Below, piece by piece: positions 42,025 through 45,000 of a DNA stretch of 64,000 nucleotides. This DNA is from Escherichia coli (GTDB lineage Bacteria; Pseudomonadota; Gammaproteobacteria; Enterobacterales; Enterobacteriaceae), in NCBI RefSeq assembly GCF_013315695.1, contig NZ_CP054353.1, one strand, 5' to 3'. The notes below the pieces were generated by a model. It saw nothing but the letters and a program-made list of their open reading frames with translations. It ran no database searches and was not told where the DNA came from. Position numbers and translations under genes: made by a program. Numbering within the stretch: position 1 is the stretch's first letter; every line of letters begins with the position of its first letter.

Positions 42025-45000
42025 ATGAACAAAATTTTTAAAGTTATCTGGAATCCAGCGACGGGCAGTTACAGCGTTGCCAGCGAAACGGCGAAAAGTC
42101 GTGGGAAGAAGAGCGGGCGCAGTAAGCTGTTAATTTCTGCACTGGTTGCGGGTGGATTATTGTCGTCGTCTGGGGCATTAGCTCAGGCAGGGTTAGATAC
42201 AGGTACTGGTGTTACCCCTGCTGGTCATAATAATGGAACAGGTTGGATAGCTATTGGTACCGATGCTGAAGCAAGCACTCATACCACAACGAATGGCGCA
42301 GCAACTGCCGTGGGCTACTACTCCAAAGCGTTAGGTATGTGGAGTACTGCGTTAGGTGCATATAGCGAATCGAATGGCAATGCTTCACTGGCTCTTGGGG
42401 TTAAAGCACAATCTAACGGTGACCGCTCTATTTCGATGGGCGCTTCGTCGAGTGCAAGCATAAATGCGGGTTACTCCATCGCGATGGGGGTATTTGCTTT
42501 CACCGATGCAGAGTACGCGGTAGCCCTTGGCAATGAGAGCAAGGCACTTGGTAAATACAGCCTTGCATTAGGAAACGCAAGTCAGGCATCTGGCGAATCC
42601 AGTATTGCATTAGGTAACACAAGTGAAGCCAGCGAACAAAACGCGATTGCGCTGGGGCAAGGCAGCATTGCGAGCAAAGTGAACTCAATCGCGTTGGGCA
42701 GTAACAGTTCGTCTGCAGGAGAGAATGCCATCGCGCTAGGAGAGGGCAGTGCCGCGGGAGGCAGCAACAGTCTAGCTTTCGGTAGTCAATCCAGGGCAAG
42801 CGGCAATGATTCTGTCGCCCTCGGTGTAGGGGCTACAGCAGCGACCGACAATTCTGTCGCTATCGGCGCAGGATCGACCACTGATGCAAGCAATACAGTT
42901 TCAGTTGGCAACAGCACAACAAAACGCAAAATTGTTAATATGGCTGCCGGTGCCATAAGCAACACCAGTACCGATGCCATCAACGGCTCACAGCTTTATA
43001 CGATCAGTGATTCAGTCGCCAAACGGCTCGGGGGAGGCGCTACTGTAGGCAGCGACGGCACCGTAACCGCACTAAGCTACGCGTTGAAAAGCGGCACCTA
43101 TAATAACGTGGGTGATGCTCTGTCAGGAATCGACAATAATACTCTGCAATGGAATAGAACCGCGGGGGCATTCACCGCTGCACACGGCTCAAATACCACC
43201 AGTAAAATCACTAATGTTGCTAAAGGTACGGTTTCTGCAACCAGCACCGATGTAGTAAACGGCTCTCAATTGTACGACCTGCAGCAGGATGCTCTGTTGT
43301 GGAACGGCACCGCGTTCAGCGCCGCACACGGCACCGACGTCACCAGCAAAATCACCAATGTCACCGCTGGCGAACTCTCTGATACCAGCACCGACGCCGT
43401 CAACGGTTCTCAGCTGAAAGCGACCAAGGACGATGTGGCGGCAAACACCACCAACATCACTAACCTGACGAGCGAAGTGGCTGGCAACACCACCAGTATC
43501 ACTAACCTGACTGATACGGTGACTAACCTCGGTGAAGACGCCCTGAAATGGGACGACGCCGCAGGCGCATTCACCGCTGCACACGGCACTAACGCCACCA
43601 ACAAAATCACCAATGTCACCGCTGGCGAACTCTCTGATACCAGCACCGACGCCGTCAACGGTTCTCAGCTGAAAGCGACCAAGGACGATGTGGCGGCAAA
43701 CACCACCAACATCACTAACCTGACGAGCGAAGTGGCTGGCAACACCACCAGTATCACTAACCTGACTGATACGGTGACTAACCTCGGTGAAGACGCCCTG
43801 AAATGGGACGACGCCGCAGGCGCATTCACCGCTGCACACGGCACTAACGCCACCAACAAAATCACCAATGTCACCGCTGGCGAACTCTCTGATACCAGCA
43901 CCGACGCCGTCAACGGTTCTCAGCTGAAAGCGACCAAGGACGATGTGGCGGCAAACACCACCAACATCACTAACCTGACGAGCGAAGTGGCTGGCAACAC
44001 CACCAGTATCACTAACCTGACTGATACGGTGACTAACCTCGGTGAAGACGCCCTGAAATGGGACGACGCCGCAGGCGCATTCACCGCTGCACACGGCACT
44101 AACGCCACCAACAAAATCACCAATGTCACCGCTGGCGAACTCTCTGATACCAGCACCGACGCCGTCAACGGTTCTCAGCTGAAAGCGACCAAGGACGATG
44201 TGGCGGCAAACACCACCAACATCACTAACCTGACGAGCGAAGTGGCTGGCAACACCACCAGTATCACTAACCTGACTGATACGGTGACTAACCTCGGTGA
44301 AGACGCCCTGAAATGGGACGACGCCGCAGGCGCATTCACCGCTGCACACGGTACTAACGCCACCAACAAAATCAGCAACGTACAAGCTGGCATAGTCTCC
44401 TCTGACAGCACTGACGCCATAAATGGCTCACAACTTTACGGTTTGGCTGATTCATTCACGTCCTATCTGGGTGGTGGTGCTGATATTAGCGATACAGGTG
44501 TATTAACCGGGCCAACCTATAGTATTGGCGGCACTGACTACACTAACGTCGGGGATGCTCTGGCTGCGATTAACACTTCATTTAGTGATTCTCTCGGTGA
44601 TGCTCTGCTCTGGGATACAACCGCAGGCAAATTCAGCGCCAAACACGGCATTAATAATGATCCCAGTGTAATCACTGATGTTGCAAACGGTGCAGTCTCG
44701 TCCACCAGTAGCGACGCTATTAACGGTTCGCAACTTTATGGCGTTAGTGACTACATTGCCGATGCTCTGGGCGGGAACGCTGTGGTGAATGCGGACGGCA
44801 GTATCACTACACCGACTTATGCCATAGCGGGTGGAAGTTACAACAACGTTGGTGACGCACTGGAAGCGATCGATACCACGCTGGATGACGCCCTGCTCTG
44901 GGATGCGACAGCCAATGACGGTGCTGGTGCATTCAGCGCCGGTCGCGGGGTAGATAACACCGCCAGTAAGATTACTAACGTCGCAAATGGTGCAATCTCT

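Follow-up and report, generated by a model that had tools for sequence, protein, structure and literature searches.

Why should the stalk of a bacterial surface adhesin contain four almost letter-perfect copies of one 255-bp unit, and does their likeness mean that they are new? The question is raised by a 64,000-nucleotide stretch of an Escherichia coli genome (the whole of it here termed the window), for which a preliminary description reported four in-frame tandem units with a one-base difference in the last copy. Tandem Repeats Finder and base-by-base comparison bear this out. The former returns a single array at 43311-44378 (period 255, 4.2 copies, 98% matches, 0 indels). By the latter, the first three units (starts 43351, 43606 and 43861) match one another at every base and the fourth, at 44116, has one change, a C>T at unit position 237 that is synonymous (GGC>GGT), unit-to-unit DNA identity being 99.6-100%. 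Just outside the array proper, 43351-44370, identity at a lag of 255 falls to background, about 25-40%, and this confinement of the periodicity excludes chance. The array is in frame within the adhesin ORF and encodes residues 443-782. The 85-aa block originally given for each unit was right in its length and its repetition but not in its start, as KITNV...NATN begins one codon 5′ of 43351, and the block actually encoded from there is ITNV...NATNK. A nested 42-bp sub-repeat is present in each unit (also at 43686, 43941 and 44196), and the 71-aa unit type of other strains is the 85-aa unit minus one 14-aa copy of that sub-repeat. On the opposite strand an ORF of 398 aa covers the array (43189-44385), but it is open only through repetition of a stop-free 255-bp unit and is rejected as a gene.

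Table 1. Features of the adhesin locus, in window coordinates
Feature	Position	Strand	Details
Promoter-like site TTGACA-18-TAAAAT	40528..40557	+	11/12 matches; upstream of sadB start; consensus scan only
5′ remnant of sadB (SadB/YajI lipoprotein gene)	40748..40816	+	first 69 nt; alignment to intact L002 sadB (2274-2957)
IS1	40817..41584	+	768 bp; insA 40872-41147, insB 41066-41569; terminal inverted repeats read in sequence
3′ remnant of sadB (pseudogene)	41587..41981	+	relatives' annotation: partial, N-terminus missing
Trimeric autotransporter adhesin gene, upaG/ehaG/sadA-family allele	42025..47025	+	1666 aa; exact protein WP_174183284.1
ESPR extended signal peptide	42025..42168	+	aa 1-48; Pfam PF13018, E=2.6e-15
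N-terminal YadA-like head repeats	42301..42915	+	aa 93-297; Pfam PF05658
Unit 1	43351..43605	+	aa 443-527; neck, six-heptad coiled coil and DALL connector
Nested sub-repeat	43431..43511	+	42 bp (14 aa, two heptads); 1.9 copies; Tandem Repeats Finder
Unit 2	43606..43860	+	same as unit 1; G85A (V>M) in AF3 and MSB1_4I counterparts
Unit 3	43861..44115	+	same as unit 1
Unit 4	44116..44370	+	departs from unit 1 only at 44352 (C>T); AF3/MSB1_4I counterpart at 11 sites
YadA-like membrane anchor	46840..47022	+	aa 1606-1666; Pfam PF03895, E=2.5e-19; PDB Hia and YadA anchor matches
Terminator-like hairpin	47049..47078	+	3′ of adhesin stop codon; consensus scan only

What the units belong to is readily recognized. 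Pfam, run on two overlapping halves of the 1666-aa protein, detects, besides the tabulated domains, further head repeats and more than 15 PF05662 necks, including necks at residues 442, 527, 612 and 697. A C-terminal YadA-like anchor, with an N-terminal ESPR, YadA-like heads and necks, is the organization of a trimeric autotransporter adhesin (TAA, type Vc), and these domains, together with matches of the unit to solved SadA stalk fragments, uphold the early assignment of the repeats to an adhesin stalk. The locus lies between the mtl and lld operons, with mtlR-yibT-yibL-sadB 5′ and lldPRD 3′; the same neighbours flank the gene in 20 loci, and the RefSeq gene name there is upaG or ehaG (ATCC 25922, O157:H7). 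By position, with sadB upstream though disrupted here, the adhesin is evidently of the UpaG/EhaG/SadA orthologue group, and homology to the solved SadA trimer fragments predicts a surface-exposed homotrimeric fibre for adhesion or aggregation. A single unit amounts to a whole stalk module, with 22 residues of neck, 42 residues of coiled coil in six heptads, and a DALL connector. The six heptads run unbroken from L22 to D63, with V/I/L at a and N/L at d (two layers having Asn at d), and the connector has the motif DALKWD followed by AGAFTAAHG. Alignment to SadA 2YNZ extends across coiled coil, DALL and neck (E=4e-22), 3ZMF and 2YO2 also match, and these correspondences to solved fragments fix the fold of the unit. 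The succession of heptad coiled coil, DALL and a neck of 19-22 residues is that of the BadA/SadA-type stalk module.

Is the number of modules constant? The preliminary description had proposed comparing repeat number between strains, and among complete E. coli genomes it is not invariant. The 255-bp unit is present in 150 of 5426 such genomes, at 1-8 places per genome, and with the 234-bp unit type as query related units are found in 3388. The arrays among 19 alleles comprise, in residues per unit, 85x1, 85x3, 85x4, 85x2+71, 85+78x2, 85+78x3, 85x2+78x3 and 85x4+71. In complete genomes, alleles identical outside the array have 3 or 4 255-bp units or are one 234-bp unit apart, and more divergent alleles have 1 to 5 units. 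Gain and loss in whole in-frame units, as had been foreseen, is evident from arrays that differ among alleles whose remaining sequence, about 4.4 kb (430+1326+2650 bp compared), has 0 differences. One set with such identical flanks and unlike arrays consists of the window, L001, L002 and L006, another of CUVET17-1418 and CUVET19-1993 versus CUVET19-1396, and another of LD67-1 versus FDAARGOS_1285. The 42 units of 255-bp type resolve into 16 haplotypes with 14 variable sites, and the failure of the four-gamete test by 34 of 66 site pairs implies at least four recombination events within the unit. Perfect duplicates occur in other complete genomes (three identical units in L011, two in L006), as do mosaic units (L003, L007, L012). 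The flank-identical alleles with different arrays and the mosaic units therefore indicate that intra-array recombination or slippage alters the array faster than its flanks collect point mutations. With the array being the fastest-changing part of the locus, short-read values for its copy number and inter-copy differences are untrustworthy and unfit for fine typing.

Units come in lengths of 255, 234 and 213 bp, each a whole number of codons, and 18 of 18 other alleles are in frame through the array. An ON/OFF phase-variable contingency locus was considered and rejected, as no unit size can shift the frame via the array. Separately, the IAI39 allele is a frameshifted pseudogene. Antigenic variation, which had been suggested as a consequence of repeat gain and loss, is not what the alleles reveal: unit variants are only 0-2 residues apart and, with the units so nearly identical in protein sequence, the variation affects length and not epitopes.

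A different issue is whether perfect identity implies recent expansion, as had been supposed, and here the nearest relatives are informative. Over the 64,000 bp, 16 sites separate the window from genome AF3; 11 of the 16 fall within the 1,020 bp of the array (binomial p about 7e-17), and each of these makes the window copies more alike. Its two near-clonal relatives, AF3 and MSB1_4I, already have four units, the last one differing at 11 sites, and what sets the window apart from them is its homogenized state. The divergent last unit is common to IS1-bearing (L001, L004) and IS1-free (L002, L005) relatives, so it is the ancestral state and that of the window is derived. Since 9 of the 11 array differences are synonymous, the identity stems from homogenization of DNA rather than from selection at the protein level. 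Unit 4 of the window is a chimera of A-type and T-type sequence, the switch falling somewhere between unit positions 177 and 237. Sequence comparison thus indicates that the homogeneity would be due to gene conversion or unequal exchange or, less likely, to assembly homogenization, rather than to a recent increase in number.

The identity could still be a mark of youth if the array had contracted to one or two units and single-unit duplication had then brought it back to four. Gain and loss of units clearly happens at this locus, no base separates the three A-type units, and an A/T chimera such as unit 4 is the type of product expected of one unequal crossover. That history would, however, take at least three events (a contraction with breakpoint at 178-236 and two duplications) to restore exactly the ancestral four of the clone-mates, where one or two conversion tracts cover the same data, and it is very unlikely.

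The assembly itself has to be considered from two directions. Collapse of the array to a false copy number, against which the preliminary description had cautioned, is unlikely given that two other, independent genomes of this clone, both complete, also have four units. A subtler artefact would leave four as the correct number, with a true array of AF3 type (A, A′, A, T) whose minority variants were replaced by the majority unit in assembly or polishing. All 11 array differences do lean to the majority unit, and the sole surviving variant is the one nearest (18 bp) to unique flank. A short-read metagenome contig has an identical four-unit gene, and a loop-resolving assembler would yield identical copies by construction; the short-read-style contig L021 (NODE_..._cov_16.9) has four fully identical units, as from a resolved graph loop. 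The xylR homopolymer, G5 in the window versus G4, could be residual sequencing error. The variants at unit positions 173 and 177, on the other hand, were also ‘lost’ though they are only about 80 bp from unique sequence, which is a poor fit to mis-mapping, and a unit with 4% divergence is normally resolved by long reads across 1 kb. The exact 1666-aa protein is recorded under WP_174183284.1, QKM93467.1, XJF94794.1 and XJK31278.1 (UniRef n=5) and occurs on 4 contigs, of which two exceed 1 Mb, and the chimeric and perfectly duplicated units of the other genomes named above reveal such states to be common elsewhere. On balance the artefact is improbable, if less so than the contraction and re-expansion. 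The two ATCC 25922-type assemblies, NE88 and ATCC 25922, are separated by a similar ‘homogenized’ difference that counts toward an artefact, though its cause could be either very rapid conversion or an assembly effect that recurs.

What probably operates, then, is a set of four complete stalk modules of UpaG/EhaG/SadA type whose number is changed by recombination or slippage and whose likeness is kept by conversion, with fibre length as the expected effect. Copies of 255 bp at about 100% DNA identity would misalign while DNA is replicated or repaired; whole modules would then be gained or lost, with the frame always kept, through RecA-dependent unequal exchange between sister strands or RecA-independent slippage, and conversion between copies would maintain their likeness (concerted evolution). 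The latest event detectable in the lineage of the window would have left the number unchanged while copying sequence from neighbouring units over one site of unit 2 and the greater part of the divergent last unit. Change in copy number would alter fibre length by roughly 5-9 nm per module, and with it the projection of the N-terminal head. There are precedents. BadA stalk domains of up to 87 aa share the coiled coil-DALL-neck grammar (PMC9602544); the number of BadA domains varies among isolates via recombination and fibre length tracks gene length, a protein of 3,973 aa giving 243 nm and one of 2,920 aa 155 nm (PMC8859334). Head exposure has been connected with repeat number in TAAs (PMC9704523).

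Any effect on length may be muted in this strain. The IS1 replaces 220 bp of sadB, as judged by BLAST against L002, and AF3 and MSB1_4I have the identical insertion, annotated IS1A. The promoter-like site upstream of sadB is a candidate promoter of a sadB-adhesin operon, the operon model and locus context being those of Grin et al. (PMC3953254), and IS1 both inactivates the helper gene and parts the adhesin from this likely promoter. Proper surface display of SadA requires SadB (PMC3953254). Expression and display of the adhesin in this strain are doubtful from the layout of the locus, and with sadB broken and the promoter-like site cut off, the array may have little phenotypic effect here and tuning of length may escape selection. 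In this lineage, having the adhesin gene is not to be equated with displaying the protein.

From this it is a short step to regarding both the number of units and their homogenization as noise, i.e. non-adaptive repeat instability in an adhesin poorly expressed or displayed here and devoid of phenotype. Non-adaptive evolution of TAAs has reportedly been argued in one paper. The IS1 and the 220-bp deletion, which kill sadB and cut the one strong promoter-like site off from the adhesin, the need of SadA for SadB (PMC3953254) and the pseudogene allele in IAI39 all point the same way. But the retention of frame by 18 of 18 other alleles, and unit lengths (85, 78 and 71 aa) that differ by whole heptads with the register kept, suggest species-wide purifying selection on a functional fibre. 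Such neutrality is a real possibility, without being the likelier case, and it is compatible with the proposed mechanism of recombination, slippage and conversion, competing only with an adaptive interpretation of it.

Another possibility is that the units are ligand-binding modules instead of spacers, with copy number tuning avidity for extracellular-matrix (ECM) proteins and not reach. In BadA, fibronectin is bound cumulatively by DALL-neck connectors and the coiled coils next to them in short stalk domains (PMC9602544), and UpaG and EhaG are given as binding fibronectin, laminin and collagen in PMC6555100. Yet no sequence counterpart of the BadA peptides that bind fibronectin was detected in the unit, and PMC6555100 lists SadA, the closest structural relative, as cell-binding and not ECM-binding, which leaves this explanation distinctly unlikely.

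In its essentials this is ordinary and familiar length variation of a surface protein, the gene and the phenomenon both being already known, and current understanding of TAAs is unchanged. TAA stalk length nonetheless affects the reach of the head beyond LPS, capsule and fimbriae, and UpaG and EhaG have been discussed as vaccine antigens (PMC7247748). A more speculative extension, and a rather unlikely one, is that the array of the UpaG family truly works as a periscope-like device within a TAA, with unit number tuned to the thickness of O-antigen or capsule. Conversion and the gain or loss of units would then be rapid enough for clone-mates (about 1 SNP per 12 kb), and even laboratory derivatives (ATCC 25922 versus NE88), to differ already. 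If true, E. coli would be a tractable system for the rates and fitness effects of variation in TAA stalk length.

Among known systems the nearest are UpaG of uropathogenic E. coli, EhaG of EHEC and their positional orthologue SadA of Salmonella, with which the window shares the order mtl operon, sadB, adhesin, lld operon (PMC3953254) as well as ESPR, YadA-like head, a stalk of neck, coiled-coil, DALL and FGG elements, and YadA anchor. Identity over full-length alignment is 75% to UpaG and 65.5% to EhaG. In ATCC 25922, UpaG likewise carries tandem repeats at the equivalent place, following 92-aa and 48-aa modules, but its units are of 78, 78, 78, 71 and 71 aa as against four of 85 aa. Further distinctions from UpaG and EhaG are the limitation of the 255-bp unit to 150 of 5426 complete genomes and the interruption of the window sadB by IS1. 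BadA of Bartonella henselae likewise has coiled coil-DALL-neck domains (those of up to 87 aa being without an FGG motif), isolate-to-isolate shifts in domain number by recombination, and a fibre length that scales with gene length. Where the gene described here is single-copy and its array short, with 1 to 5 units that are almost the same, BadA has 18-34 domains of mixed type and lower mutual identity, with flanking pseudogenes as donors. The repeats of Cha, of a Haemophilus cryptic genospecies, are reportedly much shorter, about 28 aa, than the full 85-aa structural module of the window. As relayed in PMC9704523, Cha too is a trimeric autotransporter with variable in-frame tandem peptide repeats (Sheets & St Geme 2011), their number being linked there to head exposure and adhesive activity. 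The remaining comparison is with the Periscope Proteins (Whelan et al. 2021; Whelan 2022), surface-stalk proteins with repeats of >50 residues and very high DNA identity, whose number varies among close strains, with homologous recombination and variable projection of a distal functional domain proposed. The array shares the repeats of >50 residues, their high identity and their variable number among close strains. The class is further defined by a monomeric single-chain rod of independently folding domains, whereas the unit, by SadA homology, folds only as a trimer, and the Periscope review excludes TAAs as ‘lacking tandem repeat domains’. The array is periscope-like in behaviour and outside the definition of the class.

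The gene that carries the array belongs to the known, named adhesin family UpaG/EhaG/SadA of trimeric autotransporter adhesins (TAAs). Structures hit by its 1666-aa product include solved SadA fragments from the Salmonella fibre (E=1e-139 for 2YO0) and those of other TAAs. Flanking the gene in the 20 E. coli loci fetched are mtlR-yibT-yibL-sadB and lldPRD, the same locus as that of sadBA according to Grin et al. (PMC3953254). RefSeq labels alleles here upaG (ATCC 25922) or ehaG (O157:H7), to whose products the window protein, already on record exactly as WP_174183284.1, is 75% and 65.5% identical, respectively. 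In IAI39 (L018, NC_011750, 3175-8044) annotation marks the adhesin orthologue as a pseudogene with a frameshift, translation ending after 698 aa.

Within the ORF (42025-47025, + strand), Tandem Repeats Finder gives 43311-44378 as a single array of period 255, with 4.2 copies, 98% matches and no indels, and also a 42-bp repeat (1.9 copies) nested in every unit. This and unit-by-unit comparison confirm the four in-frame 255-bp repeats of the preliminary description: the units starting at 43351, 43606 and 43861 are mutually identical, and that at 44116 has, near its end as had been described, a single mismatch, a synonymous C>T at unit position 237 (window 44352). Identity at lag 255 drops to background immediately outside the array, which is in frame with the ORF and encodes residues 443-782. 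The 85-aa block reported earlier is the right repeat unit, though it starts one codon ahead of the nucleotide coordinate assigned to it. A 398-aa antisense ORF (43189-44385, - strand) shows no sign of being a gene and owes its open frame solely to the repetition of a unit that lacks stops.

The 85 residues comprise a 22-residue neck, six unbroken heptads from L22 to D63 (V, I or L at position a, N or L at position d) and a DALL connector, with two of the heptads having the Asn-at-d form VxxNTxx. Alignment with SadA fragment 2YNZ extends over coiled coil, DALL and neck (E=4e-22), 3ZMF and 2YO2 also being matched, and the same grammar is found in the short stalk 'domains' of BadA, which consist of coiled coil, DALL and neck and lack the FGG motif if 87 aa or less (PMC9602544). 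Every unit is thus a self-contained piece of the fibre. Neighbouring modules (92 and 48 aa upstream, and those downstream) have the same grammar in diverged form.

Features of the adhesin and its surroundings (nucleotide positions in the window unless marked aa)
Feature	Position	Remarks
Sole strong promoter-like site	40528-40557	Upstream of IS1 insertion; consensus match
IS1	40817-41584	Inside sadB; 220 bp of sadB replaced
ESPR signal peptide	aa 1-48	
YadA-like head repeats	aa 93-297	Plus two other head segments
Neck motifs PF05662		More than 15 in protein
Nested sub-repeat	43431-43511	Equal offset in each unit; 42 bp = 14 aa = two heptads
YadA-like anchor	aa 1606-1666	
Terminator-like hairpin	47049-47078	13-bp stem and T tail; 24 bp past adhesin stop codon, before lldP

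The 255-bp unit is present in 150 of 5426 complete E. coli genomes, exclusively in this adhesin gene, at 1-8 places per genome (median 3). Comparison of 18 fetched alleles, with gene lengths of 4236, 4416, 4650, 4704, 4746, 4947, 5001, 5043 and 5538 bp and array forms 85x1, 85+78x2, 85+78x3, 85x2+71, 85x3, 85x2+78x3, 85x4 and 85x4+71, bears out the proposal that unit number changes in whole-unit, in-frame steps. Length steps between the three unit types (85, 78 and 71 aa) are of exactly 7 or 14 residues and fall within the coiled coil, so that heptad register is preserved. Taking one copy of the 42-bp sub-repeat out of the 85-aa type yields the 71-aa type, and the sub-repeat is a second, finer tier of length variation keeping that register. 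(Loss of a sub-repeat copy explains the 71-aa units of MS 21-1 and 2017-02-2CC, and 7-aa steps the 78-aa type.) Antigenic variation, also suggested earlier, does not hold up: units are at most two residues apart, and the variation is therefore of length.

Flanks without a single difference (430 bp upstream, 1326 bp of 5′ gene and 2650 bp of 3′ gene) accompany unlike arrays. With A the majority unit, A′, A″ and A* its variants, and T the divergent last unit, one such group comprises the window (A A A A*), AF3 and MSB1_4I (A A′ A T), AF10 and AF14 (A A″ T, three units) and MS 21-1 (A A and a 71-aa unit). In a second, CUVET17-1418 and CUVET19-1993 are one 234-bp unit apart from CUVET19-1396, as in a third are LD67-1 and 23CRST026 from FDAARGOS_1285. 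Since identical flanks carry unlike arrays, the array evolves faster than its flanks gain point mutations. The 42 units of 255-bp type form 16 haplotypes from a common set of 14 variable sites, and of 66 site pairs 34 do not pass the four-gamete test, for which at least four intra-unit recombination events are needed; exchange with breakpoints within units is common.

Perfect identity had been taken to imply recent expansion, a view at odds with four-unit clone-mates whose unit 4 is divergent where that of the window is homogenised. Over 64,000 bp, AF3 (NZ_OZ547117) differs from the window at 16 sites, 11 of them within the 1,020-bp array (binomial p ~7e-17). AF3 and MSB1_4I have IS1 in sadB in common with the window, and likewise four units; their unit 2 carries G85A and their unit 4 has 11 variants (positions 6, 9, 21, 24, 33, 120, 121, 153, 173, 177 and 237; nine synonymous), of which the window retains position 237 alone. 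As this terminal unit occurs also in the IS1-free, three-unit AF10 and AF14, it is ancestral and the window state derived. The simplest reading of these sequences is homogenisation with unit number unchanged, where a single tract of conversion, 172 bp or longer and ending between unit-4 positions 177 and 237, would explain the perfect copies together with a unit-2 variant that was lost or never present.

An assembly or polishing artefact would leave the same picture: every change runs towards the majority unit, the sole surviving variant is the one closest to unique sequence, all four units are fully identical in a SPAdes-style metagenome contig (L021), a xylR G5/G4 homopolymer difference is a possible residual sequencing error, and the ATCC 25922 and NE88 assemblies differ analogously. 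However, the exact protein has several accessions and is encoded on four contigs, of which two exceed 1 Mb, chimeric units and perfectly identical adjacent units are frequent among other complete genomes, and variants just ~80 bp from unique sequence were replaced as well. Artefact is rather improbable, and there is good reason to regard the array as real.

L021 (ENA ERZ1311788 NODE_1127, 25.7 kb) begins at the IS1 end and has the same 4-unit gene with C at unit-4 position 237, so that it represents a graph-loop artefact or else a relative homogenised still further. In xylR (window 1089-2268), five G at 1163-1167 compare with four in AF3, a frameshift leaving 1423-2268 as longest ORF, with two more SNPs within 250 bp (1285 and 1419); this could be a genuine pseudogene or a homopolymer sequencing error. 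ATCC 25922 (L022, NZ_CP149500) and NE88 (L023, NZ_CM130026), evidently one strain background with identical flanks (2,934 bp upstream, 929 bp downstream), differ within upaG solely in the array: modules 78,78,78,71,71 versus 78x4,..., with 21 bp gained and variants homogenised in NE88, the cause being an assembly effect or else very rapid gene conversion during culture.

The array gains and loses whole units in frame, recombines within units and, at the DNA level, evolves in concert. From what is established about tandem-repeat instability in E. coli, the events would occur by unequal sister-strand exchange, gene conversion or RecA-independent replication slippage between the 255-bp direct repeats. 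Each added unit would make the fibre some 5-9 nm longer, given 42 coiled-coil residues at ~0.15 nm each plus connector, and given the 0.053-0.061 nm per residue of BadA, whose fibres of 3,973 and 2,920 aa are 243 and 155 nm (PMC8859334). Heads of 1-unit and 4-unit alleles would accordingly project ~15-27 nm apart. Reviews tie TAA repeat number to head exposure (PMC9704523), and SadA function is, per one review, masked by LPS and fimbriae (PMC7247748).

In the present strain sadB (window 40748-41981) is inactivated, the identical IS1 lesion being present in AF3 and MSB1_4I and absent from three-unit AF10 and AF14. Consensus matching gave no + strand promoter-like site between IS1 and the adhesin start, and the insertion cuts off the promoter-like site upstream of it from the adhesin gene. 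With sadB broken and that site separated, this lineage may express or display the adhesin poorly, and drift may be acting on the array.

For users of the region, the clone-mate comparison provides a useful fine-scale caveat, that identity here reflects homogenisation and not expansion. The behaviour of the array matches that of periscope proteins, but the definition of that class covers monomeric rods and explicitly excludes TAAs, such as this one. Among TAAs themselves, copy-variable stalk modules are well documented, as in BadA and Cha, and the array finding is in that respect already known and leaves existing knowledge unchanged.
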